The position numbers and the translations under genes are program-made. The notes beneath the pieces are model-generated. The model searched no databases. It was not told the origin of the DNA and saw only the letters and a list, made by a program, of their open reading frames with translations. A stretch of 64,000 bases of DNA, from NCBI RefSeq assembly GCF_963676685.1, contig NC_092349.1:75906473-75970472 (forward strand). Direction: 5' to 3'. The DNA is from Mytilus edulis. Lineage: Eukaryota. Positions 27,057 to 64,000 of the stretch are shown here, piece by piece. The first letter of the stretch is position 1. Each line of letters begins with the position of its first letter.

Positions 27057-28835
27057 ATGTACGAAGAAAGTGCCCATATGATTACATTTCACACTTCTGT
27101 AAATAGAATACAACCCTGGATAAAGGCTCTCAGCCTGCTTTACTTTGACAATATGGGTAATCAAAAAGATAATGTAATAAAATGGTCAGATGTACCAGAA
27201 AGATGGTCTGACAGACATGATGTTGCTAACTCCATATTAATAGAAATCAGAGATCCAAGTGAACATATCTTGAAATATAATGTCACCTTTTTTGTAACAA
27301 CAGGTACTATTAGAGTACAAGGAAGTAACTACCTCTCCTTTGTTGAAAAAGATTTCCCAATTCTGATTGAAATAATGAAGCTGTTAGATACATGTGAAAA
27401 TGACGAGACCCCCTTGAAAACAATCGAAGGTCGTGAACCTAATGAAGTGGTCACACAGCAAACAATAAATGATCAAGTAATGACGGTTTCAGAAAAACAA
27501 ACCAAGACTGATGCTAACAATATAAATGAAGAAAAATCTGAAGTTTCACAAAACCTAAAACCAACCAACCCAAAAATTGATAATAATAACAATGCAGCAG
27601 ATACCCCTTCACAAACTGAAGTCAATTTGTCTCGTCTTCAACAATGCTTCCTTGACACTATATGCAAACTTCAAATTAGTCAGGAAAAAGACACTACAAC
27701 TATAGTAGAAGCTGTTAATGAGTGCAAAATACTTCTTTTGCAAGGTCAGTCTCAACTTGACCAAAAGAGCACTGATAAGGATACTCTGTCTAAAGAATTA
27801 CAATCAGTACACCAAAAAATCAAAACATTACAAGAAGAAAAAGATTCTCTGAAGTCACAACTACAAATTGAAAAGGGGAATGTTACGCTTCTAAAATGTC
27901 AGTATGACGATTTGAATATTCATAGTAGAAATCTGCTAGTAGAGACTAGAAAGGAATTAGAAAAACTTGTCTCATCAACAAACTCCGAGCTTGACTTTAA
28001 TGCAAATAGGCTTATTATAAAAAACCAAGAACTACAAACACTTCATGAATCTGAGCACAATTTAAGGTTACAGTTGGATAAAGCGATGGATGAAATACTC
28101 AACCTGAAAAGTCAAATTTCATCATCAATGGATATTTCTGGTCAACACGCTGGAACTGCAACATCCAAGTCACAACACCAGACTAAAGAACAAGTTGACC
28201 AACAACCAATTTGGAAACCTAGTGTCCTTCTAATAGGAACGTCAAATATTCGTGGGATCAATGAAAGTAAATTATCGCCAAGTATAGATGCTATTAAGGA
28301 AATATGCTTTACTCTGGATAAAACAAATGAATATATCCTTGGTTATAATCCTCAAACTCCACCAGCTGTTGTTGTTTTACACATACTTACCAACGATCTA
28401 AAGACAAAAACCCCACAGAATTGTGCATGTGAGCTGTTTGCACTTATATCCACTATTCAAGAGAAATGGTGTGAAGTTAAATGTATAATATCACTTGCTA
28501 CACCAAGAAAGGATGACATGATGCACCACACTAATGGGCAGATTGTTAATGCTCTCATCAAACAGAATTTCTATGGAAGGCATTACACAGAGCTTAAGAA
28601 ATTCCAACTAATAGAACATAATAACATGTACTATGAAGGTCAAGCGAACGAGGATTTATTACAAAACGACTTGTATCACTTAAACGATAAAGGTGTGTCA
28701 TTTCTGGCATCAAACATAAAACAAGCAGTACACCAAATTCTCAATATTCCGCTCCCACCCACTCATCGACCTAGGAGCCAATCGCGCAACAGACGAGGAA
28801 GAGGTAGAGGCCGTGGCCGTGGAGATTCAGATTAA
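27057..28835 (+). CDS. LINE ORF1: coiled-coil, SGNH/esterase-like domain and C-terminal RG-rich tail
   Basis: Six-frame ORF of 592 aa. The central region is Q/L/E-rich with heptad character (LQEEKDSLKSQLQIEKGNV...). The C-terminal part has esterase/SGNH-like blocks (VLLIGTSNIRG ... VVLHILTNDL) as found in ORF1 of L2/CR1-like LINEs. It ends in RGRGRGRGRG. Confidence 0.7.
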   Translation: MYEESAHMITFHTSVNRIQPWIKALSLLYFDNMGNQKDNVIKWSDVPERWSDRHDVANSILIEIRDPSEHILKYNVTFFVTTGTIRVQGSNYLSFVEKDFPILIEIMKLLDTCENDETPLKTIEGREPNEVVTQQTINDQVMTVSEKQTKTDANNINEEKSEVSQNLKPTNPKIDNNNNAADTPSQTEVNLSRLQQCFLDTICKLQISQEKDTTTIVEAVNECKILLLQGQSQLDQKSTDKDTLSKELQSVHQKIKTLQEEKDSLKSQLQIEKGNVTLLKCQYDDLNIHSRNLLVETRKELEKLVSSTNSELDFNANRLIIKNQELQTLHESEHNLRLQLDKAMDEILNLKSQISSSMDISGQHAGTATSKSQHQTKEQVDQQPIWKPSVLLIGTSNIRGINESKLSPSIDAIKEICFTLDKTNEYILGYNPQTPPAVVVLHILTNDLKTKTPQNCACELFALISTIQEKWCEVKCIISLATPRKDDMMHHTNGQIVNALIKQNFYGRHYTELKKFQLIEHNNMYYEGQANEDLLQNDLYHLNDKGVSFLASNIKQAVHQILNIPLPPTHRPRSQSRNRRGRGRGRGRGDSD

Positions 28836-29448
28836 CTTTGTATAATAACTAATGTCAATTTTATTCTACACATATATAATGTATATTGTTCATATTCATA
28901 TCACATAATTCTCTTTTTATTACAAATACATGTATATGCAGTAGAACTTGCATGTTCTATTTTTTTTTTTTTTTTATCATATAAAATTCAGGATGTCATA
29001 AATGAACAAACATTATATTGTAAACTTTTAATATTGTTCATTATTATTTGAAAAGTTAAAAGTCATATATAAATTCAACTTAGTTCTAAATAACATAGTG
29101 AATATCAAATAACGCAAGGATTGCCTTAATTTTATTCCCTTTATTACAATTGAATGTGTGAATTGCACACAAGGGAATTTTGGTACACTACTAACTAAGT
29201 TTATAAAAAGAAAGATAAAAAAAGGAATCAAAATCAAGTCAAGGACAAAAACAACTGATTTAACTTGACGGCCATTTAATTCTAATTCTTTAATTGGCAC
29301 CTTATAAAAAGGTTTATCTTTTTGCATATATTCTTTATCATATTGTTTATAAAATATTTATATACTTGGAAAGTATTTAAATAATTCTTTTTCATTTTGT
29401 TTTTAAATTTCTTTGATATTTAAAATAAATACAAGAAAAGAAGGGACT

Positions 29449-30906
29449 ATGTCACCAAGAACAGTCACATCATTAAAAATGTGCTTTCTTAATTTAGGGG
29501 GCCTTATGAACAAGGAGGGTAACAAATCGGATGATCCCCTTTTCTTAAACAAAATTGATAAATATGATTTGGCTTTTTTTGCTGAAACACACATTGGATA
29601 TGAGTCCAATATTCATAGAATAGGTCCTTTTAATTGTTATAATGTATGTAGACCTAAAACTAGGGCAAACAACAGATTTTTTGGTGGGTTGGCAGTATTA
29701 GTTAAAAAAAATATCAAACCTTATGTAAAAATTCTCAAAAACACTTGTACTGACATTATGTGGATAAAGTTAGAAAAGGATTTTTTTGGTTTTCAAAAAG
29801 ACTTATATATGTGTGTAGTGTATAACCCACCCTCAATGTCATCATATACTCAGGGACTCGACCGGGACATTACTGAATGTTTAGAACAGGAAACTGCAAA
29901 ATATATGAAAATGGGTAATGTTTTACTGTGTGGTGATTTTAATGCAAGAATTGCCAATTCCCCTGATTATATTTTAAATGATGATCAATCTTATTTACCT
30001 CTTTTTGATAACTATCCAATTGATAAGCAAATCTTGAAAAGACAAAGCAGTGATACAACAATTGATTCAAGGGGAAAGAGTCTATTAGATCTCTGTATTC
30101 TAAACCAGTTAAGGATACTAAATGGTCGAGTCCTAGGGGATGTTTTTGGAAAGTACACATGTTATACGCCAAACGGCAGTAGTGTGGTTGACTATGTGAT
30201 GGTGTCGGAGAGTATTCTGGATCAAATTTTATATTTTTATGTTCACAACTTTATGCCTACTATTTCAGATTGTCATTGTATACTGGAATGGGAAATGTCA
30301 AGTAAATTTACTGTTGATGATAATGATTGTAATATTAATATGTTTGATAAATCTCCAAATTTCATATGGTCAGATGAATCACCTACAAACTTTCAGACAG
30401 CTCTATTATTACCAGATATACAAACACAAATTGATACATTTAATAAAAGTATAATCAAAGAGTCTCAATCCTCTGTCGATGAGGCTGCAGCAGAATTATC
30501 ACATATTTTCCTGTCTGCTGCTACTAATTCTTTAAAAAGAAATAAACTAAGAAATAAGAAAATAAAGACAAAAAAATGGTTTGATGGAGATTTGTACCAT
30601 CTTCGAAACAAATTAATAAGTTACGGTAAAATATATTCAAAATTTCCTTATGACCCATTAGTGAGAGGTCACTATTATAAGCTTAATAAGCAATATTCTA
30701 AACTTAGAAAATTTAAGTATAAAGAATATAAAAAATCACTTGTTGAGCAGTTACAGAATCTACATGATGATAATCCTAAATCTTATTGGAAGTTAATTAA
30801 TGATTTAAAAAATAATGATAATAAGGACCATAGTTCTGCTGTGGCACCATCTGTGTGGGTTTCACATTTCAATGGATTATATCAATTACATGAGTCATTC
30901 AAGTAA
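29449..30906 (+). CDS. LINE ORF2 5' part: apurinic/apyrimidinic-like endonuclease domain
   Basis: Blocks FFAETH, LLCGDFNARI and SVVDYVMVS are APE/EEP endonuclease motifs. The first ATG is at 29449 inside the six-frame ORF 29413..30906, which ends at a TAA. Confidence 0.7.
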   Translation: MSPRTVTSLKMCFLNLGGLMNKEGNKSDDPLFLNKIDKYDLAFFAETHIGYESNIHRIGPFNCYNVCRPKTRANNRFFGGLAVLVKKNIKPYVKILKNTCTDIMWIKLEKDFFGFQKDLYMCVVYNPPSMSSYTQGLDRDITECLEQETAKYMKMGNVLLCGDFNARIANSPDYILNDDQSYLPLFDNYPIDKQILKRQSSDTTIDSRGKSLLDLCILNQLRILNGRVLGDVFGKYTCYTPNGSSVVDYVMVSESILDQILYFYVHNFMPTISDCHCILEWEMSSKFTVDDNDCNINMFDKSPNFIWSDESPTNFQTALLLPDIQTQIDTFNKSIIKESQSSVDEAAAELSHIFLSAATNSLKRNKLRNKKIKTKKWFDGDLYHLRNKLISYGKIYSKFPYDPLVRGHYYKLNKQYSKLRKFKYKEYKKSLVEQLQNLHDDNPKSYWKLINDLKNNDNKDHSSAVAPSVWVSHFNGLYQLHESFK

Positions 30907-30908
30907 GA

Positions 30909-32948
30909 GTGGCTAAGTTGGAAAAAAAGCTAGATAATCTTGAAAAAAATGTTTGTTTTAATAATCTTGATAAACTTATAACAGAGAAAGAAATTTCTTT
31001 TGCCATTTCTAAACTACGTTGTAACAAATCACCAGGCTTGGATAACATTTCAAACAATATGATTAAACACAGTCAAAATGTTTTACTATCGTCTCTTTCA
31101 AAAATATTTAATTCTTGTCTGTCTCATGGTTTATACCCAAGAAATTGGACCGAAGGTTATATTACAGTATTACATAAGTCAGGTGAAGTCACTGACCCAA
31201 ATAATTATAGAGGACTAACAATCACTAATGCAATTGGTAAGCTTTTTAACAGTATACTTAATATAAGGTGGGATAGTTTTTTAGAAGAAAATAATGTAAT
31301 TAATGATTGTCAAATAGGTTTCACAAGAAAGGCAAGAACATCTGACCATATGTTTGTTTTAAAATGTATTTTTGATAAATACTGTAATACTAAGGATGGG
31401 AGAGTGTTTGCTTGCTTTGTTGATTTTCATAAAGCTTTTGATAAAGTAATACATACAGGAATTAGAATTAAGCTGTTAGAGATTGGGGTTAGTTCAAGGT
31501 TTTATAGCGTTATAAAGAATATGTATCTTGAAACTAGATCTTGTATAAAAATACATGATAAAATAACTGAATTCTTTCAAACAAAGCTTGGTGTTAAACA
31601 AGGAGATAACTTGAGTCCTAACTTGTTTAAAATATTTATAAATAGCCTTCCAGACTATTTTACACGAACCAGAGATCCAATTATGCTGGATGGCAAACTC
31701 ATTCATTGCCTTATGTATGCTGATGACATTGTAATTTTATCTAACTCAGCTGAAGGACTACAAGAGAAATTAAATGAACTTCATAATTTTTGCAATGACT
31801 GGTGCTTAGATATAAATACTAAAAAAACTAAGGTGTTGATATTCAACAAGGCAGGCAGACATATCTCTCAAAAATTTATTTTCAACAAAGATGAGCTGGA
31901 GTGTGTATCTAATTATAAATATTTGGGTATCCAATTTAATGCATCATGTTCTTTTTCATATGCTCAGAATGATTTATACCAAAGAGCCTTAAAAGCATAC
32001 TTCAAACTATGTAATGATTTTTTAGTGCATAATCCTACTGTTAAAAATGCAATTCATGTTTTTGACCATACAATAAAGCCTATACTTTTATATGGGTGTG
32101 AAATTTGGGGATATTTCAATCCCTTTACTGCACGTTTAAAAAAAGAAAACATAACAGTGGATACAATTTACTCAAGGATACTTTGTGAAAAACTTCATAT
32201 TAAATTCTGCAAATATATTTTAGGCGTTAATAGGAAGAGTACAAACTTTGCAGTTTTGTCTGAATTAGGCTGTTTTCCACTTCACTATGATATAGTCAAA
32301 CATGTTTTAGGATATTGGCATCGTTTAGAAAATATTGGCTCATCATTTCCCTTGTTAAAAGCTGCATATAATTGTTCTAAAAAGCTATTTGAAACAAAAA
32401 AAACCTCTTGGTATGGATCAATTAATATTTTAAGGGAAAAAATGTCAGGCATAGAAAAACATATTCTTGAAAAATACTCAACATTTAAACTACACTGTGG
32501 GCAGATAGTTAAGGGATACTATACTGCATTGTGGAAAAAACAGCTAGACAAACATAAAGATGGTAAACTACGAACTTATGTAACATTCAAGTGCAACTAT
32601 GGTTTTGAAAATTATTTGTCAATAATTCGACATTTTGAGCAAAGGAAATGTATTACTAGATTAAGAATATCTGCTCACAAATTGCAAATTGAATCTGGTA
32701 GATACCAGGGTACTCTTCGACAAAACCGAATTTGTCTCAGGTGCACCTCAGGTGAGGTTGAGGATGAAGTTCATTTTTTATTTAAATGTGACACTCATTT
32801 ATTAAAAAGAGAGGAAATGATGCAAAATATATTAAAATCATGTCCAAACTTTCAAAATTTAAATATTGATAACAAATTAATTTGGATAATGAATAATGAG
32901 GATCCTAATGTACTATTTGCATTTTACAAATATATAGAAGATACTTAA
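30909..32948 (+). pseudogene. LINE ORF2 3' part: reverse transcriptase plus C-terminal zinc-finger-like domain, out of frame with the endonuclease part
   Basis: RT motifs are present (FVDFHKAFDKV; LMYADDIVILS; KTKVLIF). This ORF is in a different frame from the EN part (29413 vs 30909). A stop and a -1 frame change at 30906-30909 imply a frameshifted, probably dead ORF2 or a sequencing error. Confidence 0.6.
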
Positions 32949-34985: not shown

Positions 34986-35105
34986 GCCTGCATGCTAACA
35001 TTTTATCCGGAGTTTGATGCAGATTTTGACCCCCAACAGGAAGTTATCTATTTATTAGATATGTCTAATTCTATGAAAGGTCAAGCAGGGAGGGATGCTA
35101 AAAAG
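34986..35105 (+). CDS. PARP4: PARP4-like exon 20 (start of vWA domain)
   Basis: atttttag|gcc ... aaaaag|gtaatg. Translation ACMLTFYPEFDADFDPQQEVIYLLDMSNSMKGQAGRDAKK matches human ACMLVFQPDLDVDLPDLASESEVIICLDCSSSMEGVTFLQAKQ. The DxSxS residues are the vWA MIDAS motif. Confidence 0.75.
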
Positions 35106-35567
35106 GTAATGTATAAAAAACAATATCAATCTATGAAAGAAAAAAATAAGGAAGCTTTGCTAAAAAAAAGTAAAGCAAAAACATTTATCTAAACCAAACC
35201 TTTTTGGATCTAATTGTTTTTTTACAAATATAACAAACGTTGAGTTTACAGAGCTTTGATTACTAAAGAATATTGATCATAATTTCTCATTCAAATGTTC
35301 AAGTTTAAGTTTTTTGTCAACATATTAAGTTCAGTCTGTGGTTTAAGTTCCTTTTAGACAAGATCTTTGTCAGACTTTTATGGAATTTTACAAAACTTGG
35401 ACAGTAGCTTTCTATTACAAATTTTAAAAAGAGATGGCATCTATAGTAAAAAAAAAAGATTTGGTATTTTATCATTAAATTGACCTACAAATGTAGCTAT
35501 ATATTTAAAAAAAAAAAAATATTTAAATGATTTTCTTTATATAATTTATTTCTATTATGTGTTTCAG

Positions 35568-35708
35568 GTTTTCCTATTGTCTTTGACAAAGTTACCAGAC
35601 AAGTCCAGTTTTAATGTGATCACATTTGGTACAACATTTAAAGAGCTATTCCCATCACCACAACTCAAAACAAAAGATTCAGTACAAAGAGCTACAAACT
35701 TTATTCAG
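35568..35708 (+). CDS. PARP4: PARP4-like exon 21 (vWA)
   Basis: gtttcag|gtt ... attcag|gtaaaa. Translation VFLLSLTKLPDKSSFNVITFGTTFKELFPSPQLKTKDSVQRATNFIQ matches human IALHALSLVGEKQKVNIIQFGTGYKELFSYPKHITSNTMAAEFIMS. Confidence 0.7.
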
Positions 35709-36036
35709 GTAAAATCATATTAAACTTAATATCTTAAAATCTTATTCATTGATTTTGATGGACTTTCTCAAGTATTTCACCGTGGATTCATTTATTTTCT
35801 CTGTTACTTATTTTCTGGGGATTAAGGAAAACTTGCATGTTCATGGATATTTAGTTTTATGGTTTTGCAGAAGTCTGCATACAAACCTGTTTCAGATTGG
35901 TTATTTGTTAAACATTTAATTTCGTGTTTTATCTGTACCCACAAATTACACAAATATTGGTATCCAAAGATTTATAATGAATCCACACAGTATTTCAAAA
36001 CTGCTTGATTTTGATCCTAACATATTTTATTTACAG

Positions 36037-36224
36037 TCAACTGAGTGTGACCAAGGAGGAACCGTTGTCGTCACTTTGTTACAGTCCTTGTTCTTACTCA
36101 GTCCACCAGAGGGCAGCAGAAGTATCATTCTTATATCAGATGGTCACATGACTAGTGTTGAGGAAACTTTATCACTGGTCAGAAAAATGAGTGATCAGAA
36201 TCGACTTTTCACTGCAGGAGTTGG
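36037..36224 (+). CDS. PARP4: PARP4-like exon 22 (vWA)
   Basis: tttacag|tca ... gttgg|gtaggt. Translation ...GGTVVVTLLQSLFLLSPPEGSRSIILISDGHMTSVEETLSLVRKMSDQNRLFTAGVG matches human MGNTDFWKTLRYLSLLYPARGSRNILLVSDGHLQDESLTLQLVKRSRPHTRLFACGIG. Confidence 0.75.
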
Positions 36225-37077
36225 GTAGGTATAAAAATCTATCTTTTATTCTCTGCTGCTTATTAAGTAACATCTCTTTTATTGATTGAAAGAGACTTTA
36301 CCTTTATCCACTCATTAAGAATTCATTTACAATATATAATTGAAACATTTGCGTTACACTTGTATTGCATAAATTGATATTGAATATTGTAAACTAGGTA
36401 AAAAAACAATATATAATGGAATTACATTAAGGTAATATCCCTGTGCTTAGAACAATGAAAAGTAATAGATGTCATTTACCAAATGTCAGATATTGTGCAA
36501 TACATTTTATTCAAAATGGTTGAAATATGAATTTCTGAATTGGTTCTGTCACATTGTGTTGAATGAACAGATTCTGAGAACATGAAGATTACAATGCATT
36601 TCTAGTCCTTATATTATCATTTTAGATCTTAATGCTGCGTTATCACTTGATTTCTGAAATATAGCTTTTTGCAAAATTATCTGGGCTTTTACAACAATGA
36701 GACCCCAAAAATGAACTGTTTTTAAAAGTCATCAATAGGAATTAAATTACAAGTCACTAATAATATTACAAATAAGGAATACTAAAAAAATATTTTTCCA
36801 AACTTTAATAATTTTTTCAAAATCTTAGGGATTAGGTACAAAAACCATAAAAGCTTATAAGATTCTGAAATAAAAACTGCTTTTAAAATTTAGTTCTATA
36901 GTCCCTTGGATGCCTCTAAAACTTAAATTTATGAGGTGTACAGGTTTTCATGTAATTTTGTGGTGTAAATATGGCCAATCATGTATTTTTAAAAAGGTTA
37001 TGATGAACCTTAAATATTATTTTTAAAGAATCTAAATTAGTATAATATAAAATAATGTTTTATCTTTTTTTTCTCAG

Positions 37078-37177
37078 TCCTGCAGTAAATCATCACTTAA
37101 TGAAGACACTAGCGACATCTGGTGGAGGAACATACCAATATTACAACAACAAAACTAAGTCTAATTGGCAGTCAAAG
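37078..37177 (+). CDS. PARP4: PARP4-like exon 23 (vWA end)
   Basis: ttctcag|tcc ... tcaaag|gttagc. Translation (G)PAVNHHLMKTLATSGGGTYQYYNNKTKSNWQSK matches human STANRHVLRILSQCGAGVFEYFNAKSKHSWRKQ. Confidence 0.65.
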
Positions 37178-38563
37178 GTTAGCATTGACCATTACATGTA
37201 TTAATATTTTATGTTAAATCAAAACCTTGCTTATGGCAAGATGAGTTAATCTCCAATCTTAATTGACCATAAGTGCCAGTTTCTTTCTTTATTCTTCATT
37301 TTGTCTGGGTGCTAAGCCTTCAACCACCAAACAAATGTTTTCTGTGACAAGGCCAAGGTTGCTCAAAGTGTTTGTTCAACCAATACCAGGAAACAAAACT
37401 TTCTTCAGGTTCATTTACTATTAAGAATTTGGCAAAATGAACTTGAGATTTTCAATGATAAATTACTGATCTGGTTGAGTGGTCCTTTTGTATCAGCTGT
37501 TATTATGTTACAATCTCTTGTGGTAATAAACATTGAAAAAGTTGACCATGTTTGATTGAAAAGCTTTTAAATATTTAAAATTTAACTGTTGATAGTGGAG
37601 AAATATCAAAATACAAGAGATGTAGTGGTGAAATCTGTTTCTCTAATGATTTTTAGATAATATTTAATCAGAGTTTATCCTTTCTTTTCAAATATGCAGA
37701 AAGTTGTGTTCTTTATATGTGAAGTCACCAGGCATCATTGCCTTTTTCATGAAGTCACAGTAATAAAGGAGTAGGTCCGGTAAGACCCCTTTTTGGCCCC
37801 AAAATATAACAGTTTTACAAAATTGTTAAAATGTAAACCTTTAGTTATTTATTGGACAGTTGAATGCTTCTGCTACATTAATATGGGCAGTTTTTGACAA
37901 TACAATGCACATATATCGGGTTGTGGCACCATTAAGTCACGCTAAATTACTGAAATCTTCAAAATTCTATCATTTTAGTTAAATTTTAGACGGTTTCCTT
38001 GTAAAACGAAATTGGCCGCATTCGTGTTCATCCTTAATATTGAAATGTAAGTTGTATTTTATGAAAATACATAACATATATAAAGGTTGTGGATGAACAC
38101 GGATGCGGCCACTTTCATTTTTGACAAAAACCATCTGAAAATTGACGTTTTTTGGCATATTTGAGAGATTTTTCATATTTGAGCTTGAATCGGATCGTTT
38201 TTAATGACTAAATCAGATAAAATCTTTCACTTACACTAATTAAATCAAGTGAAATAGACACTTAAGTCTTTAAAAAGTGGTCAAAATCTTTCGTCAGATG
38301 AAAGTGAAATTTGAGGCCAAAATGAGTCCTTACCGGACCTACTCCTTTAGATTTCAAGAAAATTTGACATTGTAATTAAATTTCCATCAATCATTTGCTG
38401 AGAACAAAGTTTTCACTAGAAATGATAAATATTTAAATTATTCTGTTTAACACATCTGACAGTTTTATGTAAAAGGCTGTGTATTTTAATATCAAGCAAC
38501 TATTTAGACTGTAAACATTTTGGGCAGATCTTTCTTAATGCTCCACATGGTTTTATTCCACAG

Positions 38564-48810: not shown

Positions 48811-49000
48811 ACACTAGAAGTTTGTTTGTGAAGACTCTGACAGGTAAAACTATTGGAGGAGTAGAACTACTTGCCTCTGATACAATAGAACAAGTCAAGG
48901 TCAAGATACAAGAATTAGAAGGGATCCCAATAGATCAACAGAGATTGGTTTTTGATGGAAAACAGCTAGAAGATGGTCATACATTAGAGGATTACAGCAA
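48811..49000 (+). CDS. Ubiquitin-like domain, first exon (residues ~3-60 of the ubiquitin fold)
   Basis: Acceptor ttattacag|ac. Translation (D)[63 protein letters not shown] aligns to ubiquitin [58 protein letters not shown]. The initiator Met must lie in an upstream exon. The donor near 49001 (aag|gttaac) is uncertain. Confidence 0.5.
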
Positions 49001-50083
49001 GTTAACATTTTGTTTTCTACTAATATTACTGTGGATTCATTATTGTTCATTGGATACAAATTTTCGTGGATGATATACAGTTTTCAAATATAGGTCAACC
49101 TCAAAAGCCTCTGAAATAAATTGAGCTTTTGCCATTTGATAAAAGACTTTTCGTTTTGAATTTTCCTTAGAAATTCGTTAGTTTTGATATTTTACTGTCA
49201 AAGATCTGTCTTAAACACTAAAAAGAAAAACATTCATGATCAGACATGACCAAAACAAAAATGTGCAGATAGAAAAAAGTTAAATACTGTCAAAATTAAT
49301 TTTCTCTGTAATAATCATTTTATGATAATTTTTAAAGCTAGGCAATTGGCCTTATTGGTGTTGCCTTCATGCCATATTTGTCCCTGACCGATTCAATTAC
49401 GTCTGCTAAGTTGATTATTTATCAACAAAAAGATAAGATTATGGCATTAGACCAGAGAAAGTTATCCATTGATGTCACAAAAATAAACTTAGATTTCATT
49501 CCAAAACTACAAAATATCTTCTGCAAGTGTTAATGACTGCATCAGGAAAATTTGAGATAATGACACTTTTCCTGTTTTATTAAACTTATTGCTTTTTCAA
49601 AACAAGCTAAGGAAAGAGATTAAACATTTTTTGATACTTCTATGTAAATAAGATTTGAATTCAATGCAATTGGTAAAATATCACATTTTTTGTGTTGAAA
49701 AAAACCCAACCAAAGTGACATTTCTTTGAGGATGTCAGTACACAACAATTTGTGAAAATAACATTCTTTCCATAGACTACATGCATTTGTATATTTTCTA
49801 ATTTTTGTTCTATTTACACATTTCTTGATTGGTGTGTGAAAAAAATTTCTCCTCACTAGTTTTAATAATATCTGTTGATCAAAATTCAATTGTAACGTGA
49901 AGTCTTCTTGGTTTCTTCTGAACTTGAGATCCTCCTATTGTGACGTCATGAAAAATTGTGCGCACCCTCTTTAGTTAGGGTTCTTGTTCTTAGTGTATGC
50001 TTGAAATTTGCAACTAAATGTTTAGTAACCAGCGTTGGTTGTGTAAGTCATTAAGTTTAAGATAATGATTAATTCTATTACAG

Positions 50084-51426
50084 GAATAACAAATGAAAGT
50101 TCAATTCATATGGTATTACGTTTAAGAGGAGGACCTGATCCTTTTTCTACAACTTTTCAATCATCAGGATCACAACCACTTTCATTGCCGGGTCAGATTC
50201 AGCAGCAACTACAAGAAAATTTGAAAGCCAAGTTTCAGGAAAAACAACAAGTGGTGCAGAATCAGGTTCAAGAACTAGGACAACAGGTGTTTGATGAGCG
50301 ACAACAAAATTTAGTAGTAGAGCAACTCCATTCCTTGTATAAACCATCAAGACCTGATCCATTACCTTTGTTGCAGTCCAATGTTTATCAACAACAACAG
50401 CAAATGTTGGGTTCCAATGTACAGCAACCACAGCAAATGTTTCAGCCCCAGGTTCAACAACAACAGCAAATGTTTCAGTCCCAGGTTCAACAACAACAGC
50501 AAATGTTTCAGCCCCAGGTCCAACAACAACAGCAAATGTTTCAGCCCCAGGTTCAACAACAACAGCAAATGTTTCAGCCCCAGGTTCAACAACAACAGCA
50601 AATGTTTCAGCCCCAGGTTCAACAACAACAGCAAATGTTTCAGCCCCAGGTTCAACAACAACAGCAAATGTTTCAGCCCCAGGTTCAACAACAACAGCAA
50701 ATGTTTCAGCCCCAGGTTCAACAACAACAGCAAATGTTTCAGCCCCAGATTCATCAACAACAGCAAATGTTTCAGTCACAAGTTAAGCAAAAACAGCAAA
50801 TGTTGCAGTCCCAGTTTCAGCAACAAGAGCAAAGGTTTCAGCCATGGGTTCAGCAACAACAACAACAATCTGCAGCTTGTGTCAGGTCTTTTAGTCCATA
50901 TTATTTTACCAAAAGTTGTTCTACTAAAAGTAGGAGATATGAACCTTTAAATCCGAAAGGTTTTAGTTTTGGGAGCCAGGTTACAGCAACTAATGAATTA
51001 TTTGGTCAACAGTCAAGCAGTGTTAGTGCACCTTTTAGTGGTTCTAATTTTGATAGTGTGCGATCATATGGGATGATTCCTAGCCAGGCAGAGACAACTC
51101 AAAATATATATGGTGGAGGTGGTGGTAGTGAAGTCGGAAGTGGATTTGGAAGTGGTTTCAGTTTTGGATTTCAGCAGCCACAGTTAAAACCGCCATCAAT
51201 GGCGAGTTTTGACTCAATTCAGTCTTCTAATGTGGCATATGGGGGCTTATTTGGGAGTGAGCCAGTAGGTGAAAGAGCAGCAGATACATACCAAGATAAA
51301 GATGAAACAGCCCAGGATGTATTACCTCTTAGAACTGACATGCCAAGTGGTGGCTTTGAATATAAAGAGGTAGACTATCCTGATACTGTGGATTTCATTA
51401 TTTTCTTGGATACCAATTTTCATTGA
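50084..51426 (+). CDS. Ubiquitin-like C-terminus (HMVLRLRGG) continuing into a Gln-rich 11-aa repeat region and a Gly/Ser-rich tail
   Basis: Acceptor ctattacag|ga. Translation ITNESSIHMVLRLRGGPDP... then 10 tandem copies of QQQQMFQPQVQ (a 33-bp DNA unit, 50443-50775), then FGSQ/FGSG-like G/S/F-rich sequence. A stop codon sits at 51424-51426. A phase-0 donor (aaagag|gtagac, 51369/51370) could instead splice to the exon at 52294. There is a 1-nt phase mismatch with the upstream Ub exon under canonical GT-AG. Confidence 0.5.
50443..50775 (+). repeat. 33-bp coding minisatellite (caacaacaacagcaaatgtttcagccccaggtt)x10
   Basis: Near-perfect tandem copies. Occasional c/t differences (cagtcc vs cagccc) mark individual units. 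The repeat generates spurious long ORFs in other frames and on the minus strand (50147..50779, 50362..50766, 50381..50950). Confidence 0.9.
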
Positions 51427-52293: not shown

Positions 52294-52416
52294 GTTAAAA
52301 GAAAAAAGCAATCAGCCAGAAAGTCAACTGGTGGTAAATGTCCTAGAATACAGGTTACTGGTAAACTAGCATCCACAGAAGCTTTGAGAGATGACCAATC
52401 TGCCTCAGTCAGTCAG
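52294..52416 (+). CDS. Exon encoding a histone H3 N-terminal tail mimic (KQSARKSTGGKCPR)
   Basis: ttaaag|gtt ... gtcag|gtggtt. 123 nt, phase 0-0. Translation VKRKKQSARKSTGGKCPRIQVTGKLASTEALRDDQSASVSQ. The core matches H3 residues 4-17 (KQTARKSTGGKAPR) at 12 of 14 positions. Confidence 0.45.
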
Positions 52417-53536: not shown

Positions 53537-53683
53537 GAATTGGGGTCAATAGTTGAAGAACAAAAGAAGATTCCAGATAGGTATGGACCAAGGAAGAGTG
53601 CTCCTATAGTGGAAGAAATTCATATACCAGATACATCTTCTGAGGAAGAATCATCAGGGGAATCATCTGATGATCATGAAAGT
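53537..53683 (+). CDS. Exon encoding a PRKSAP motif (H3K27-region-like) plus an acidic Ser/Glu-rich tract
   Basis: caacag|gaa ... gaaagt|gtgagt. 147 nt, phase 0-0. Translation ELGSIVEEQKKIPDRYGPRKSAPIVEEIHIPDTSSEEESSGESSDDHES. Confidence 0.4.
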
Positions 53684-55787
53684 GTGAGTTCATAGTTCAT
53701 ATCAAAATTCTAATAACTGATTATTATATTTTCAGTGTAAAACCACTGATAGAAGCACATTTGGTAGGAAGAACACAAGTTTATATACTTCAGCATGGTG
53801 CAGTGGTCAAACTGTTTCAACTCTATAAAATTCCAAAAATAAATTACATTTAATCCTTATATATATACTTGAATGCTGAAGCAGAAATTTACAAGTAAAA
53901 TCAAGTATTTGGTTGAAGTTATGTAAAAAAATCATACAAGTAGCTGGCTGTATCGCCCTACAATCTAGTGTAAGATTAAGGTGGAACATAACACAACAGG
54001 GAGATAACTCTGTTAAAAAAGTCATACAAGTGGGAAGTTCAGGTTTTATAGATAGCTAAAATTGTGAAGATTGTGCATTGTATTGTAAAAAACAGCCCAT
54101 ATTTATGTAGCAGAAGCATTCTACCTTCCAATAAATAACTAAAAGTTTACATTTTAATAGTTTTGTAAAACTGCTATATTTTGGGGCCAAAAATGGGTCT
54201 TACTAGACCTACTTTGTTGGAGTGATCCCATAGATCCAGTATGGCTGAATCAAAAATACAATGCGCAATCTTCACAATTTTAGCATTTTGTTAAATTTTA
54301 GATGGTTTCTGTCTTAAATGAAAGTGGCTGCATTTGTGTTCTTTCTTAATATTGAAATGTAAGTTGTATTTGATGATAATACATAACATATTTAAAGGTT
54401 GAGGATGGACATGGATGCAGTCACTTTTATTTTTGACAAAAACCATCTGAAAAGTGACATTTGAGACCAAAATCGGCCCTTACCGGACCTACTCATTTAG
54501 AGATTCATGATTTTTCAAAGAAATTACCTTAAAAGATAAAAAATTGTAAATTTACATTACAGTTTTGATGGTCCCAAATAGCCATGCTACTAACAAGAAC
54601 TCAGATCGATCTTTTTGTCAAATAAAACTTCAATGTCAAGGGTAAGGTACTGATATTCTTTAATTGTCTTTTTTGCATTCTAAATGAGAAGAGGAATCAC
54701 CTTGGCTAAGAGATCTACAGAATTCATGTTTACTGTGTTAATTTGTATTTTAAATAAAACTTACTTAGATATAGGAAGATGTGGTGTGAGTGCCAATGAG
54801 ACAACTCTCCATACAAATAACAATTTAAAAAGTAAACCATTATAGGTTAAAGTACGGCCTTCAACACGGAGCCTTGGCTCACACCGAACAACAAGCTATA
54901 AAGGGCCCCAAAAATTACTAGTGTAAAACCATTCAAACGGGAAAACCAACGGTCTAATCTATATAAACAAAACGAGAAACGAGAAACACGTATATATTAC
55001 ATAAACAAACGACAACTACTGTACATCAGATTCCTGACTTAGGACAGGTGCAAACATTTGCAGCGGGATTAAACGTTTTAATGGATCCAAACCTTCTCCA
55101 TTTTTCTGAAACAATAGCATAACATCACAACAAAGAAAAACATACGATAAAATATCAATTGGCAGACTTAACTCAATCAAAAAACGTATGATTAAACAAT
55201 GAACGAATAAATTTGATCTGCGATATCTGAATACAAATGCACAGTTAATTAAATATTAGAGACAAACATTCATGACCAAAAAGCTAACAAACAAATTCAA
55301 ACACAGGACATGACTGAGAAATATTTAACCAATCAATGTTCACTTTAGAAAAAAAACATTTTTTTATAATCTTGAAGTTTATACAAATGTTGTAAGAATA
55401 AGTGAAAAATTGAAGATATTACAAATAATAAAAGCTGGTGTAGACAAGATCCATATAAATAAAAAATAACAGAAAAGCATTATAAACAGTATCAACAGGT
55501 CGAATTAACAAGAAAATACGATTTGAGAGTACTCGCAGTTACTGACAGCTAGTTAAAAGCCAAAACCAATAAATAATAAAAAATCATGCATCAGAGACTA
55601 AAATCGACTAAAACACATCACAGGGATTAAGTATTTTAACGTCATTAATAGTCAAAGAAGACATGACTTGTGCAATGCCAAAAATAAATGTATCGACAGG
55701 TAGTAGTATAGTGAAGAGCGACTTCTATAGAAATAAAAGTTAACGTGTCTGTGTCTCTATACATCTCGCCTCAAAAGATAATGAAAT

Positions 55788-56300: not shown

Positions 56301-56701
56301 AATTGAAATGTCTAAATCTAGAAAAGGACAACTGCTGCTGGTTTACTTACTTACTTACTTGTTGGCTAAACATGTCGACCAGAATAAACTCTTACCATGC
56401 GGTTATTGATGGGTGTTGTTGTCTTTATTGTTTTATTTTATTTTACTTACTTACTGTAAATTCAGAAATTATTGCATGCATTTATTGCGATTTTTCATTT
56501 AAGACTTCTTAAAAATGCAATTTTAATTTTAACGATTTTGTGTTTAATTCATATAAAATATTTGAAAATGCGAGTTTAAATTATTGCATTTACAACTCTG
56601 TCACATTTTTTGCAATAATAAAAATCTCCCAATAATTTCAGAATTTACATTACCTCAAATTCAGGGCTGATTTCTGATTGTCATTATCTTTCTCTTTGTA
56701 G

Positions 56702-56902
56702 GACACATACAAAAGTCCAGGATTCTCTTATAATACAGCAGGGAAGTCCACAGGAGGATCAGCTCCAGCAATTACAAAACCTAAATCAGCTGTTCTTGAT
56801 CTGGTATACAAAAGTCCAGGATTCTCTTATAATACAGCTGGGAAGTCCACAGGAGGATCAGCTCCAGCACTTACAAAACCTAAGTCAGCTGTTCTTGATC
56901 AG
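56702..56902 (+). CDS. Tandemly duplicated 102-nt exon (2 x 34 codons) encoding GKSTGGSAPA(I/L)TKPKSAVLD
   Basis: ctttgtag|gac ... gatctg|gtatac (56803/56804), then a second copy ending gatcag|gtatac (56902/56903). Both copies keep a GT donor and the frame. The pair could be read as one 67-codon exon or as alternative exons. Translation DTYKSPGFSYNTAGKSTGGSAPAITKPKSAVLDL / VYKSPGFSYNTAGKSTGGSAPALTKPKSAVLDQ. Confidence 0.45.
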
Positions 56903-57194
56903 GTATACAATGGCTTTCTTAACCATTCACTACAGATAATAGACATAAATTATTCTTTGTAATCATAATGAATATTTGGAGATTGCATAGACAGATCTAG
57001 AGTATCTTGTTTGGATTCTGAAATGTTCTGGCCTGAGAACACAGTTATTTTGTAGAGCGTGCATTTCTTTTAGATGATAAATTAAAGTTTTAAAAATCCC
57101 ACTGGTAATTTCTCAATAACATATTTACAGTGTGTTGTACTAGCTTTGGGACAAATTATAGAAAAAGTTTTAAAAAATGGACAAATTTAAGAGC

Positions 57195-60100
57195 AAATCT
57201 GACATGAGGTAAAATTGTTTATCAGGTCAAGATCTATCTGCCCTGAAATTTTCAGATGAATCGTACAATTGCTGCCTCTGAATTGGTAATTTTAAGGAAA
57301 TTTTGCTGTTTTTTGTTATTATCTTGAATATTATTAAAGATAGAGATAAACTGTAAACAGCAATAATGTACAACAAAGTAAGACCTAAAAATAAGTCAAC
57401 ATGACCAAAATGGTCAATTGACCCCCTTAAGGAGTTATTGTCCTTTATAGTCAATTTTTAACAATTTTCATAAAATTTGTAAATTTTTACTAACATTTTC
57501 CACTGAAACTTAACTGGGCCAAGTCCATTATAGATACAGACAATTGTAAGCAGCAAGAATGTTCAGTAAAGTAAGATGTACAAACACATCACCATCACCA
57601 AAACACAATTTTATCATGAATCCATCTGCGTCCTTTGTTTAATATTCACATAAACCAAGGTGAGCGACACAGGCTCTTTAGAGCCTCTAGTTCGTAAATC
57701 TTAGTAATCTTTTAGAAAAATCTTCTCCTCTGAAACTACTGGGCCAAATTTAACCAAACTTGGCCACAATCATCATTGGGGTATCTAGTTTAAAAAATGT
57801 GTGATGTGACCCTGCCAACCAACCAAGATGGCCGCCATGGCTAAAAATAGAACATAGGGGTAAAATGCAGTTTTTGGCATTTTCCACTGAAACTTAACTG
57901 GGCCAAGTCCATTATAGATACAGACAATTGAAAGCAGCAAGAATGTTCAGTAAAGTAAGATGTACAAACACATCACCATCACCAAAACACAATTTTATCA
58001 TGAATCCATCTGCGTCCTTTGTTTAATATTCACATAAACCAAGGTGAGCGACACAGGCTCTTTAGAGCCTCTAGTTCGTAAATCTTAGTAATCTTTTAGA
58101 AAAATCTTCTCCTCTGAAACTACTGGGCCAAATTTAACCAAACTTGGCCACAATCATCTTTTGGGTATCTTGTTTAAAAAATGTGTGGCGTGACCCTGCC
58201 AACCAACCAAGATGGCCACCATGACTAAAAATAGAACATAGGGGTGAAATGTAGATTTTGGCTTATATCTCTGAATCCAAAGCATTAAGAGCAAATCTGA
58301 CATGGTATAAAATTATTCATCAAGTGTAAATCTATCTGCCCTGAAATTTTCAGACAAATCGGACAACCTGTTGTTGGGTTGCTGCCCCCGAATTAGTAAT
58401 TTTAAGGAAATTTTGCAGATTTTGGTTGTTATCTTGAATATTATTATAGATAGAGATAAACTGTAAACAGCAATAATGTTCAGCAAAATAAGATCTACAA
58501 ATAAGTCAACATGACCAAATTGTCAATTGACCCCTTAAGGAGTTATTGTCCTTTATAGTCAATTGCTAACAATTTTCGTAATTTTTTGTTAATTTTTGTT
58601 GTAAATTTTTAGGAAATATTTTCCACTGTAATTACTGGGCCAAGTTCATTATAGATAGAGATAATTGTAGCAACAAGAATGTTCAGTAAAGAAAGATCTA
58701 CAAACACATCACCATCACCAAAACACCATTTTGTCATGAATTTATCTGTGTCCATTGTTGATATGCACATAGACCAAGGTGAGCGACACAGGCTCTTGAG
58801 AGCCTCTAGTTCATAAATTTGAGTAATCTTTTACAAAAATCTTCTCCTCTGAAACTACTGGGCCAAATTAATCCAAACTTGGCCACAATTATTTTTGGGG
58901 TATCTAATTTAAAAAATGTGTCTGGTGACCCGGCCAACCAACCAAGATGGCCGACATGGCTCAAAATAGAATATAGGGGTCAAATGCAGTTTTTGGCTTA
59001 AAACTCAAAAACCAAAGCATTTAGAGCAAATCTGACATATGGGGTTAAATTGTTTATCAGGTCAAGATCTATCTGCCCTCAAATTTTCAGATGAATCAGA
59101 CAACCCGTTGTTGGGTTGCTGCCCCCGAATTGGTAATTTTAAGAAAATTTTGCTGTTTTTGGTTATTATCTTGAATATTATTATAGATAGAGATAAACTG
59201 TAAACAGCAATAATGTTCAGCAAAGTAAGATTCACAAATAAGTCAACATGACCGAAATGGTCAGTTGACCCCTTTAGGAGTTATTGCCCTTTATAGTCAA
59301 TTTTTAACCATTTTTCGTAAATCTTAGTTATCTAATACAAAAAACGTCTACTCTGAAACTGCTTGGCCAAATTAATCCAAACTTGACCACAATCATCTTT
59401 TGGGTATCTTGTTTAAAAAATGTGTGGCGTGACCCGGCCAACCAACCAAGATGGCCACCATGGCTAAAAATAGAACATAGGGGTGAAATGTAGATTTTGG
59501 CTTATATCTCTGAAACCAAAGCATTAAGAGCAAATCTGACTGGGGTAAAATTATTCATCTAGTAAAAATCTATCTGCCCTGAAAGTTTCAGACAAATCGG
59601 ACAACCTGTTGTTGGGTTGCTGCCCCCGAATTAGTAATTTTAAGGAAATTTTGCAGATTTTGGTTATTATCTTGAATATTATTATAGATAGAGATAAACT
59701 GTAAACAGCAATAATGTTCAGCAAAATAAGATCTACAAATAAGTCAACATGACCAAATTGTCAATTGACCCCTTAAGGAGTTATTGTCCTTTATAGTCAA
59801 TTGCTAACAATTTTCGTAATTTTTTGTTAATTTTTGTTGTAAATTTTTAGGAAATATTTTCCACTGTAATTACTGGGCCAAGTTCATTATAGATAGAGAT
59901 AATTGTAGCAACAAGAATGTTCAGTAAAGAAAGATCTACAAACACATCACCATCACCAAAACACCATTTTGTCATGAATTTATCTGTGTCCATTGTTGAT
60001 ATGCACATAGACCAAGGTGAGCGACACAGGCTCTTGAGAGCCTCTAGTTCATAAATTTGAGTAATCTTTTACAAAAATCTTCTCCTCTGAAACTACTGGG

Positions 60101-62080
60101 CCAAATTAATCCAAACTTGGCCACAATTATTTTTGGGGTATCTAATTTAAAAAATGTGTCTGGTGACCCGGCCAACCAACCAAGATGGCCGACATGGCTC
60201 AAAATAGAATATAGGGGTCAAATGCAGTTTTTGGCTTAAAACTCAAAAACCAAAGCATTTAGAGCAAATCTGACATATGGGGTTAAATTGTTTATCAGGT
60301 CAAGATCTATCTGCCCTCAAATTTTCAGATGAATCAGACAACCCGTTGTTGGGTTGCTGCCCCCGAATTGGTAATTTTAAGAAAATTTTGCTGTTTTTGG
60401 TTATTATCTTGAATATTATTATAGATAGAGATAAACTGTAAACAGCAATAATGTTCAGCAAAGTAAGATTCACAAATAAGTCAACATGACCGAAATGGTC
60501 AGTTGACCCCTTTAGGAGTTATTGCCCTTTATAGTCAATTTTTAACCATTTTTCGTAAATCTTAGTTATCTAATACAAAAAACGTCTACTCTGAAACTGC
60601 TTGGCCAAATTAATCCAAACTTGACCACAATCATCTTTGGGGTATCTTGTTTAAAAAATGTGTGGCGTGACCCGGCCAACCAACCAAGATGGCCACCATG
60701 GCTAAAAATAGAACATAGGGGTGAAATGTAGATTTTGGCTTATATCTCTGAAACCAAAGCATTAAGAGCAAATCTGACTGGGGTAAAATTATTCATCAAG
60801 TAAAAATCTATCTGCCCTGAAAGTTTCAGACAAATCGGACAACCTGTTGTTGGGTTGCTGCCCCCGAATTAGTAATTTTAAGGAAATTTTGCAGATTTTG
60901 GTTATTATCTTGAATATTATTATAGATATAGATAAACTGTAAACAGCAATAATGTTCAGCAAAATAAGATCTACAAATAAGTCAACATGACCAAATGGTC
61001 AATTGACCCCTTAAGGAGTTATTGTCCTTTATAGTCAATTGCGAACAATTTTCATAATTTTTTGTTAACTTTTGTAAATTTTTAGGAAATATTTTCCACT
61101 GTAATTACTGGGCCAAGTTCATTATAGATAGAGATAATTGTAGCAACAAGAATGTTCAGTAAAGAAAGATCTACAAACACATCACCATCACCAAAACACC
61201 ATTTTGTCATGAATTTATCTGTGTCCATTGTTGTTATGCACATAGACCAAGGTGAGCGACACAGGCTCTTGAGAGCCTCTAGTTTATAAATTTGGGTAAT
61301 CTTTTACAAAAATCTTCTCCTCTGAAACTACTGGGCCAAATAAATCCAAACTTGGCCACAATTATCTTTGGGGTATCTAATTTAAAAAATGTGTCCAGTG
61401 ACCTGGCCAACCAACCAAGATGGCCACCATGGCTAAAAATAGAATATAGGGGTCAAATGCAGTTTTTGGCTTATAACTCAAAAACCAAAGCATTTAGAGC
61501 AAATCTTACATGGGGTTAAATTGTTTATCAGGTCAAGATCTATCTGCCTTCAACTTTTCAGATGAATCAGACAACCCGTTGTTGGGTTGCTGCCCCTGAA
61601 TTGGTAATTTTAAGAAAATTTTGCTGTTTTTGGTTATTATCTTGAATATTATTATAAATAGAGATAAACTGTAAACAGCAATAATGTTCAGCAAAACAAG
61701 ATATACAAAAAAGTCAACATGACCAAAATGGTCAGTTGACCCCTTTAGGAGTTATTGTACAGCAAAATAAGATCTACAAATAAGTTTTACAACCAAATTA
61801 GTCAATTGACCCCTTAAGGAGTTATTGCCCTTTATAGTTAATTTTTAACAGTTTTCATAAATTTTTGTAAATTTTTAGAAAATATTTTCCAATGTAATTA
61901 CTGGGCCAAGTTCATTATAGATAGAGATAATTGTAGCAACAAGAATGTTCAGTAAAGTAAGATCTACAAAAAGATCACCATCACCATAACACAATTATGT
62001 CATGAATTTATCTGTGTCAATTGTTCAATATGCACATAGACCAAGGTGAGCGACACAGGCTCTTGAGAGCCTCTAGTTTA
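57195..62080. repeat. ~4.9-kb satellite with higher-order periodicity of ~1.24 kb, in the intron between the duplicated exon and the 62201 exon
   Basis: Identical six-frame ORFs at 58819, 60057 and 61292 (offsets 1238 and 1235). The array is built from two or three related ~380-620-bp subunits sharing the block tcttctcctctgaaactactgggccaaatt.a.ccaaacttggccacaat...gccaaccaaccaagatggcc.ccatggctaaaaatagaa.ataggggt. Copies are about 90-97% identical. Confidence 0.85.
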
Positions 62081-62200
62081 GTTTGCCTTTTTTTCTCTTT
62101 TCTTATTTTTTGTCCTATGTTTTGCACCATTTGCCCATATTCTCTATTCTGTAAACCCAATCCAACCTCATCTAAATGATATATCTAATAACATTTGCAG

Positions 62201-62452
62201 GAATCTGAATTAAATGAATGGTTAGAAGAACAACTAGAACCTGACACAGATAGTAGTAAAACCATAATGCCTGCTAGATCTGGAGACAAGGGTTCTGGAA
62301 AGTTATTAGCTACTAAGGCTGCTAGGAAAAGTGCCCCTTCAACTGGAGATGTCATAACTACTAAGAGAACTAGGAGGAAAGGGCGTATTCAGTTAGCAAC
62401 CAAGGCTGCAAGAAAAGGTGCTCCAGAAACAGGAGGTGTACCTTTGCCAGAG
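62201..62452 (+). CDS. Exon encoding two consecutive histone H3 tail mimics (LATKAARKSAPSTG / LATKAARKGAPETGGV)
   Basis: atttgcag|gaa ... ccagag|gtaatt. 252 nt, phase 0-0. Translation ESELNEWLEEQLEPDTDSSKTIMPARSGDKGSGKLLATKAARKSAPSTGDVITTKRTRRKGRIQLATKAARKGAPETGGVPLPE. Compare H3 residues 17-35, RKQLATKAARKSAPATGGV. Confidence 0.5.
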
Positions 62453-62564
62453 GTAATTATACCCCTGCTTTGAAAAAAAGGGGGGTATACTGTTTTACCT
62501 CTGTCTGTCCTTCCGTCAGTCCATCAGTCCGTCAGTCCTTCAGTCTGTCAGTCAATCCGTCCGT

Positions 62565-62900
62565 CCCATGAATATTTTTCGTCACATTTTTCTCAGGAAC
62601 TACACTACCAGGATTTCTGCAATTTTGTTTCAGGCTTGATATAAGTCAGCTATACTGTGTGATGTGTTTTCAGATTCATCACTCAACAACTTCCTGTTTA
62701 CCAAACACTTGTTTGATTTTACACATGATAGCCAAGTTGAAAATTTTTCGTCACATTTTTCTCAGGAACTACAATACAAGGAATTCTGAAATTTGGTTTA
62801 AGGGTTAATATAAGTCAGCTATACAGTTTGATGCGTTTTCAGATTCATCACTCGACAACTTCCTGTTTACTGAACACTTGCATATTTTTACACAATTAAT
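62565..62900. repeat. Two tandem ~170-bp units preceded by a (GTCCGTCA)-like microsatellite
   Basis: 62497-62560 is a (t)c(a)gtcc-type simple repeat. ttttcgtcacatttttctcaggaactaca.ta.c.agga.ttctg.aatttggttt.agg...ataagtcagctatac.gt.tgatg.gttttcagattcatcactc.acaacttcctgtttac occurs twice. Confidence 0.75.
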
Positions 62901-64000
62901 ATTATCCACTTGCGGCGGGGGTATCAACAGTGAGCAGTATCTCGCAGTTTCACTTGTTTATTTAATTAATGTATCTTGTAGAGTTGCTATTTTTGTTTTG
63001 CCAGCAACTTTCATCACTTTAAGTGAGACATGGATGTTACATTCCTTCAACAGTAGTTAGGGAAAATATATAGTTTCAAGAGAACTGACTATTGTTTAGA
63101 TTATTTAAATTCAACATCCTATGGTGAATGTTTTGTAAAAGTATAAAAAGTTAAATATAAGTTTTCCATGCAAGTGATATATTTACTTTTAAATTTCCAT
63201 TATTAAAGAAACTTATTAAATCCTTCAGAACTTTTTTCCACTTTTGTTTATAAGATATAGTTATCTTCTCTTTGAATAATTATGTCTGCCATATTGTTCT
63301 GCAAGAACTTATATATAAGACACACAGATTTATTTCCTGAAGTGAAATCATACTTTTTATATGGCCGCATAAAGGTTCAATAGAACTAAAGGAAAGTTGA
63401 GATTGATATTGCACTTTAAAGTACCAACAGTTCAGGAATTTTAGGCCAAAAAGGAGCCAAAAATAAGCATTTCTGCAGTTTCAGGACAATTACTTGTGTG
63501 TAAGTGTATGGATCTCTCTGAAATTATACCACAAGGTTTCATATTACAAAGGGAAGGCTGCGATGGAGTTCGGGGACAGTTGCCCTAAAGGTTCAGGAAA
63601 TCAGGGTCAAAAAGGGGCCAAAAACAAATATTTTTCTAGTTTCCAGACAATAACTTTTGTGTAAGTGTATGGATCTTTCTGAAATTGTACTATATGTACA
63701 AGGTGCCATACCACTAAGGGACGGCTAGGATTGAGTTTGGGGGTAATTACTCCAAGGTGTTGTTAAAAAAATTGTTTTGGGGTTTTTTTTTCATAATTTT
63801 GGGACTTTTTTTTCCTAAATTTGTTCCCCCATTTTTACACCGATTATTTCTGAATATATATAAAAGCAACAAATATGGATATGACAGGAGATACACACCA
63901 AACAGGATTTGTAAATAATAATATATAACACATTTACTAAGTATTGTGCAACAGCACAGTATTGAGCAATAGCAAGAAATCTCAAATCACACAGTATTGA

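Follow-up and report, generated by a model that had tools for sequence, protein, structure and literature searches.

A 99-nucleotide tandem duplication across an exon-intron boundary in the tail of a putative PARP4-like gene of Mytilus

Repeat-containing disordered regions of proteins usually expand by in-frame tandem duplication through microhomology or slippage. Tandem duplication of exons is also known from animal genes, where it often gives rise to mutually exclusive exons (PMC9013439, PMC9741552). The repeat analyzed here shares features with both kinds of event. It lies in a window of 64,000 nt of AT-rich eukaryotic DNA from Mytilus edulis (throughout, "the window" denotes this whole stretch). 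No intron stands between its two copies, which hence do not form the separate exons of a classical tandem exon duplication, and every tested feature of a microhomology-bounded in-frame tandem duplication was found.

A direct repeat was detected with TRF at positions 56707 to 56910, with a period of 99, 2.1 copies, 96% matches, and a score of 380, and a direct-repeat search returned the two units listed in Table 1, also at 96%. When the sequence was compared with itself at fixed offsets, 105 of 131 bases matched at offset 99 versus 36 to 41 of 131 at offsets 96, 102, and 105. The head-to-tail repeat is far above chance expectation. Between the copies, 95 of 99 bases are identical, and the four substitutions are at 56738 (A/T), 56768 (A/C), 56782 (A/G), and 56801 (T/A). 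The repeat unit therefore equals 33 codons, while the original exon measures 102 nt. The initial annotation had given the repeat unit as 102 nt, with about 93% identity and six substitutions. These values do not describe the repeat itself; they arise when the 99-nt copy 2 is aligned against the whole 102-nt exon, so that the nonhomologous first codons are counted too.

Two splice donors were found downstream of one acceptor, CTG/GTATAC at 56803/56804 and CAG/GTATAC at 56902/56903, both in phase 0, which confirms the earlier proposal that the GT donor was part of the duplicated segment. Copy 2 begins at the base right after the last codon of copy 1, without a spacer; the codons GAC ACA of copy 1 are replaced by GTA in copy 2, and the sequence across the duplication junction is GATCTGGTATACAAAAGTCC. 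A single frame is open from 56702 to 56959 and runs through both copies, reading DTYKSPGF...VLDL in the first and VYKSPGF...VLDQ in the second. A second frame is likewise open at the duplicated exon, so that openness by itself is weak evidence for coding. No in-phase acceptor was found near the start of copy 2, where the only AG dinucleotides are at 56815-56816 and 56820-56821. Both are out of phase, and the use of copy 2 as a separate exon through an internal acceptor was therefore ruled out. The product of the event is predicted to be one open exon of 201 nt with two in-phase donors, that is, an extended exon rather than a second exon. No Rfam match was obtained in the interval from 54 to 60 kb.

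For the 67-residue peptide encoded across the two copies, an exhaustive HMMER search of 1.84 billion representative proteins gave one credible match, M. coruscus CAC5400317.1, which carries the name "Ubiquitin-like domain-containing protein." Three other matches (P0004-P0006) were rejected as unrelated repeat proteins, and this search did not turn up any homolog of the unit beyond Mytilus. The M. coruscus protein is annotated in three isoforms (881, 846, and 923 aa) differing by two cassette exons, and ...DKYQSPGFSYNTAGKSKGGSAPTLTKSKSAVLDQ... occurs exactly once in all three, between the same neighboring exons. M. coruscus gene models were built by BRAKER with RNA-seq hints (PMC7227121); the assembly used here (GCA_011752425.2) was probably annotated as in that paper, a link between paper and accession that we infer. 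Its locus, termed L002, is colinear with positions 40.6 to 63.4 kb of the window. The orthologous exon at L002:38294-38395 is 102 nt long and present in single copy (tatag/GATAAATACCAAAG...GATCAG/gtacaccatt), and copy 1 is identical to it at 92 of 102 bases. The 3' end of the upstream intron is identical at 48 of 53 bases to L002:38241-38293, and its boundary coincides with the annotated M. coruscus exon start. No second copy of the exon was found in the 55-kb M. coruscus locus. Since a single exon stands at the colinear position, the duplication can be assigned to the lineage of the window, and the duplicated sequence corresponds to what the M. coruscus models indicate is a real exon. A transposable element or satellite origin of the unit was ruled out, as a single colinear M. 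coruscus site matches both the exon and its flanks, whereas the adjacent element at 56452-56652 matches other sites.

Other searches added little to this picture. A word-indexed protein search gave no match in other Mytilus; the index also missed the M. coruscus cluster when queried with part of its own sequence, so this blank is not evidence of absence. What it did yield was only a Logan genomic contig (L001), matching the last exon, and PARP4-like proteins, matching the upstream exons. The window ORFs at 56796-56939 and 50065-51423 had no exact-sequence match, conserved exon patterns had no match in two metagenome scans, and Pfam returned no credible family for the 67-residue peptide.

The boundaries of the unit point to how it was formed. 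In the repeat register, the unit extends from exon base 6 to intron base +2. The hexamer ATACAA occurs at 56707, 56806, and 56905, corresponding to exon bases 6 to 11 and intron bases +3 to +8; in the single-copy M. coruscus sequence, the corresponding hexamers are exonic ATACCA and intronic ACACCA, 99 nt apart. Because ATACAA is present both within the exon and at the intron start, the intron-derived part of copy 2 would measure anywhere from 2 to 8 nt, with GT as the only bases of certain intron origin; the initial annotation had fixed this part at the first 5 nt, which is more precise than the microhomology permits. Its description of a whole exon duplicated in frame together with its donor holds for the coding exon, the donor, the tandem arrangement, and the frame, as judged against the single 102-nt exon of M. 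coruscus, but the first 5 nt of the exon were left out of the duplication. We propose that a 99-nt tandem duplication occurred in the Mytilus lineage of the window after its split from M. coruscus, with two ATACAA microhomologies, spaced 99 nt from each other, probably mediating replication slippage or unequal exchange. Along with the donor GT, the final 97 nt of the 102-nt phase 0-0 exon would have been copied, leaving copy 2 directly abutting copy 1, and the internal donor would later have changed from CAG/GT to CTG/GT.

Table 1. Positions in the window of the duplicated exon, its splice signals and repeat units, and other parts of the putative host gene
Feature	Positions	Strand	Basis or counterpart
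PARP_reg/PARP exons	~10172-16525	+	
VIT exons	~19230-25484	+	
vWA exons	~34986-37201	+	
Upstream neighboring exon, phase 0-0, ...RYGPRKSAPIVEEIHIPDTSSEEESSGESS...	53537-53683	+	Ortholog L002:29444-29602
Upstream intron 3' end: two candidate branch-point CTGAT motifs, polypyrimidine tract, acceptor ..ctttctctttgtag/	56653-56701	+	Sequence
Copy 1, original 102-nt phase 0-0 exon, predicted to encode DTYKSPGFSYNTAGKSTGGSAPAITKPKSAVLDL	56702-56803	+	Open frame; orthologous to L002:38294-38395
Repeat unit 1, repeat register, 99 nt	56707-56805	+	TRF and direct-repeat search
Donor 1, CTG/GTATAC, now inside the extended open frame, weakened at -2	56804-56809	+	Outgroup and copy 2 have CAG
Copy 2, in-frame 99-nt extension, predicted to encode VYKSPGFSYNTAGKSTGGSAPALTKPKSAVLDQ	56804-56902	+	Repeat searches; absent from M. 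coruscus
Repeat unit 2, repeat register, 99 nt, 95/99 identical to unit 1	56806-56904	+	TRF and direct-repeat search
Donor 2, CAG/GTATAC, ancestral exon side retained	56903-56908	+	Exon side as in M. coruscus donor CAG/GTACAC
ATACAA microhomology, third copy	56905-56910	+	Other copies at 56707-56712 and 56806-56811
Downstream neighboring exon, phase 0-0, two histone H3(19-35)-like units, LLATKAARKSAPSTGDV and QLATKAARKGAPETGGV	62201-62452	+	

The duplicated exon probably belongs to the C-terminal tail of one PARP4-like gene. In upstream exons of the + strand, Pfam matches were obtained for PARP (5.6e-27), VIT (1.8e-36), and VWA_3 (3.5e-22), together with PARP_reg, and the domains follow one another in the order PARP, VIT, vWA. 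A ubiquitin-like domain, recognized by a ubiquitin-domain match, is split over two exons (48816-48995 and 50086 onward), the first of which has no start codon. Further downstream on the same strand, a Q-rich 33-nt tandem array is followed by several small phase 0-0 exons. In M. coruscus, a 1450-aa BRCT/PARP/VIT/VWA gene stands directly upstream of the "Ubl protein" model in L002, and a PARP-annotated homolog from another animal aligned in one stretch from the vWA exons of the window into the starting exons of this model. Positions 5362-62452 (+) of the window thus appear to form one PARP4 (vault PARP)-like gene, which the M. coruscus annotation splits into two models. A PARP-family enzyme with a ubiquitin-like domain and an H3-tail-like C terminus is an unusual combination. 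The intron between the VIT and vWA exons contains a LINE-type retrotransposon in gene orientation at 27057-32948 (+), whose ORFs look intact (592 aa, then 497 and 679 aa) and show endonuclease and reverse-transcriptase features.

Several other repeats and rearrangements were observed at the locus in the two species. The Q-rich array, at 50388-50865 (+), consists of 14.5 copies of a 33-nt unit at 90% identity, encoding QQQQQMFQPQV repeats within a large exon; M. coruscus has about two units, which indicates a lineage-specific expansion. The last exon of the window contains two H3-like units. In M. coruscus, rearrangements at L002 7905-10497, 45029-45780, and 50759-51508 comprise the exon MLHQLTARAVIRDYEDG (MLHQLTARAV), which appears five times in the gene model, and a duplication of the region of the last exon, about 5.7 kb apart; the first copy of this region is frameshifted, so that the annotated protein is truncated (..SGAKVLEN, then stop), and the second retains the H3-like units. 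A third related lineage is represented by L001, a genomic contig (Logan SRR29152239) aligning with window positions 62077-63373. Its last exon is 93% and its intron 86% identical to the window; the contig is 89% identical to M. coruscus and lacks an insertion of about 500 nt present at 62459-62956 of the window. Two cassette exons of M. coruscus, L002 35549-35653 and 39501-39587 (EEDFKHKK...TLQSK and TKSLALAKNELYVSERPEQLEETEYHDEE), are missing from the window, where the first has left only its 3' junction, at 53956-54018 (90% over 63 nt). The tail therefore appears to have been altered repeatedly by tandem duplication and by exon gain and loss.

Repetitive elements also occur in the introns on either side of the duplicated exon. 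A MITE-like element of about 200 nt occupies 56452-56652, its end lying about 50 nt 5' of the duplicated exon. Its 23-nt terminal inverted repeats (56452-56474 and 56630-56652) are 91% complementary. In the M. coruscus locus, its matches fall at other sites and not at the orthologous one, where homology starts at window position 56649. The downstream intron, from 57187 to 61904, is full of tandem repeats, including one with a 384-nt period found by TRF at 57494-58262 and units of about 1238 nt at 58823, 60061, and 61296. These are related to a repeat in a different M. coruscus intron (L002:27046-28118).

The differences between the copies were polarized with M. coruscus as the outgroup. Copy 2 carries two derived changes, GCA to GCT (T at 56837) and AAA to AAG (G at 56881), both synonymous; the chance of this is roughly 0.06, and these two changes constitute the only evidence for coding constraint on copy 2. 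In copy 1, codon 34 has the derived change CAG to CTG (Gln to Leu), in which the T at 56801 occupies position -2 of donor 1. The remaining Ile/Leu site, at which the outgroup has Leu like copy 2, cannot be polarized at the nucleotide level. The copies differ at 4 of 99 bases (4.0%), and the same bases differ from M. coruscus at 8 to 9 of 97 (8 to 9%). By a rough clock, the age of the event would be about 45% of that of the species split, so that it is not very recent, and the view that it had been "captured in the act" is not upheld.

Overall, the data are best explained by a lineage-specific microhomology duplication whose internal donor was later weakened, with transcripts mainly read through to donor 2 so that two units are made; we assign this reading a probability of about 0.62. 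Its splicing component was examined through predicted U1 pairing. The duplex energy was -4.2 kcal/mol for donor 1, compared with -7.2 for donor 2 and -7.1 for the M. coruscus donor. The other well-placed donors of the gene ranged from -5.6 to -7.4, making donor 1 the weakest; three listed boundaries (e4-e6) were left out of this comparison as misplaced, their exons ending within a codon. The intron side is poor in both donors (GTATAC). The derived CTG/GT of donor 1 and its weaker U1 pairing make skipping of copy 2 less likely than its inclusion. On the basis of this one base and a simple U1 energy, most transcripts would pass donor 1, be spliced at donor 2, and encode both 33-residue units. 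In that case, the protein would have two units rich in K, S, T, G, P, and A. Together, these six residues make up about 70% of the unit, a composition that suggests that the duplicated unit is disordered.

The loss of A at -2 after the duplication, with the poor U1 pairing that goes with it, also weighs against the leading alternative, which we regard as unlikely although by no means negligible. Here both donors would be used, or donor 1 would dominate, and the locus would hold an alternative 5' splice-site pair producing one- and two-unit isoforms; at the extreme, copy 2 would be the noncoding first 99 nt of an intron. Such a pair is well provided for, in that both donors are in phase 0 with identical intron sides (GTATACAA) and donor 1 retains G at -1 and GTA at +1 to +3. 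Isoform variation is moreover normal in the tail, other exons of which are cassette exons in M. coruscus isoforms. The extreme form is also opposed, weakly given the few changes, by the lack of any stop codon or indel in copy 2 and by the synonymous nature of both its polarized changes.

The preferred reading, with read-through to donor 2, further supposes that the region is translated in this species. Comparison with M. coruscus provided mixed evidence on constraint. The exon is 90 to 92% identical to its ortholog, versus 90.6% for the upstream intron (53 nt) and 85.5%, with indels, for the downstream intron, and the codon differences comprise seven nonsynonymous and two synonymous changes. 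The exon thus appears to be without clear purifying selection, and its peptide to be fast evolving. An exon diverging about as much as its intron flanks, with nonsynonymous changes predominating, would also be expected if it were not functionally expressed in the window species, the tail decaying or evolving neutrally and the duplication being neutral slippage. The two missing cassette exons fit such decay, as does the fact that neither a homolog of the unit outside Mytilus nor any hit in transcript look-ups for the window species was returned. We nevertheless consider this explanation improbable, because both species retain an intact acceptor, polypyrimidine tract, phase, and open frame, the length is divisible by three, and the orthologous exon is included in all three M. 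coruscus models. Splice sites are likewise kept between the species, and the cores SPGFSYNTAGKS and KSAVLD are identical.

A functional role for the unit was considered in view of its likeness to the tail of histone H3. Matches to the H3 tail were found in the window at 52300-52383 (RKKQSARKSTGGKCPRIQVTGKLASTEA, E=2e-5), 62279-62374 (E=2e-5), and 62360-62449 (E=2e-6). The first falls in the exon 52295-52416 (+), which resembles H3 residues 3-30, and the other two fall in the downstream neighboring exon, which resembles residues 19-35 twice; conservation of these exons extends to M. coruscus (KQTARKSCGCKFPRIQ; ATKAARKSAPAIGGV and RTKAARKSAPATGGV) and to L001. The duplicated exon had itself been described as adding another KSTGG/H3-like unit. 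It does match H3 at 9 of 11 positions (TAGKSTGGSAP versus TARKSTGGKAP), but with E=0.6 within the window the match is insignificant alone. It reads AGKS, with Gly in place of the Arg of the ARKS core that the neighboring exons possess, and the motif is not conserved, KSTGGSAPA in the window being KSKGGSAPT in M. coruscus.

The unit does contain three Lys-Ser dipeptides, compared with 0.6 expected (P=0.006), and the M. coruscus unit also contains three, one of them relocated, compared with 0.89 expected (P=0.03); in both cases the test was chosen after the data had been seen. HPF1-dependent serine ADP-ribosylation, as at H3S10 and H3S28, favors a KS context (PMC6172693), so that a role as a modification acceptor is conceivable for the tail of a PARP-family protein, although PARP4 differs from the HPF1-dependent enzyme studied for KS motifs. 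In a fuller version of this idea, the unit would be a functional KS-rich cassette and the tail a built-in acceptor or decoy for H3-tail modifications (serine ADP-ribosylation, phosphorylation, or reader binding); the duplication would have doubled the module, and the CAG-to-CTG change would have been selected to fix the two-unit form. This idea draws on the three KS sites per unit, a count kept in M. coruscus, on the H3-like neighboring exons, and on the PARP-family host gene with its ubiquitin-like domain; we hold it to be doubtful.

Haplotype-collapse artefacts are usually much larger and lie at contig ends. A false local duplication introduced by the assembler is very improbable even given the high heterozygosity of mussels (1.64% for M. 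coruscus; PMC7227121), since the copies differ at 4 sites and lie exactly head to tail with a clean microhomology junction in a contiguous region colinear with M. coruscus.

With classical tandem exon duplication, the Mytilus repeat shares adjacent homologous copies, phase 0-0 compatibility, a recent origin, and restriction to one lineage. In the classical case, however, the flanking intron is duplicated as well and each copy has its own acceptor and donor, whereas the Mytilus unit would include only 2 to 8 nt of intron. The resemblance to in-frame internal tandem duplication lies in the lack of a spacer, a unit length divisible by three, 6 nt of breakpoint microhomology, and the fact that the outgroup lacks the repeat. 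The difference is that the Mytilus unit crosses the exon-intron boundary, so that a splice signal was duplicated with it and the donors were brought into competition. As in an alternative 5' splice-site pair, one acceptor is combined with two in-phase GT donors 99 nt apart, but in this case the pair plainly arose by duplication, and its upstream member was later weakened. The locus therefore provides a well-resolved natural example of a tandem duplication across an exon-intron boundary, in which the ancestral state, the microhomology, and the later donor change can be read from the sequence, and it may be of use for studying donor competition after duplication and the gain of repeats in disordered tails. 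The event is clear but ordinary in kind, a disordered tail growing by tandem duplication as would be expected, and by itself it leaves the general view unchanged. The more unusual feature is the PARP4-like host gene, with its ubiquitin-like domain and H3-tail-like exons.
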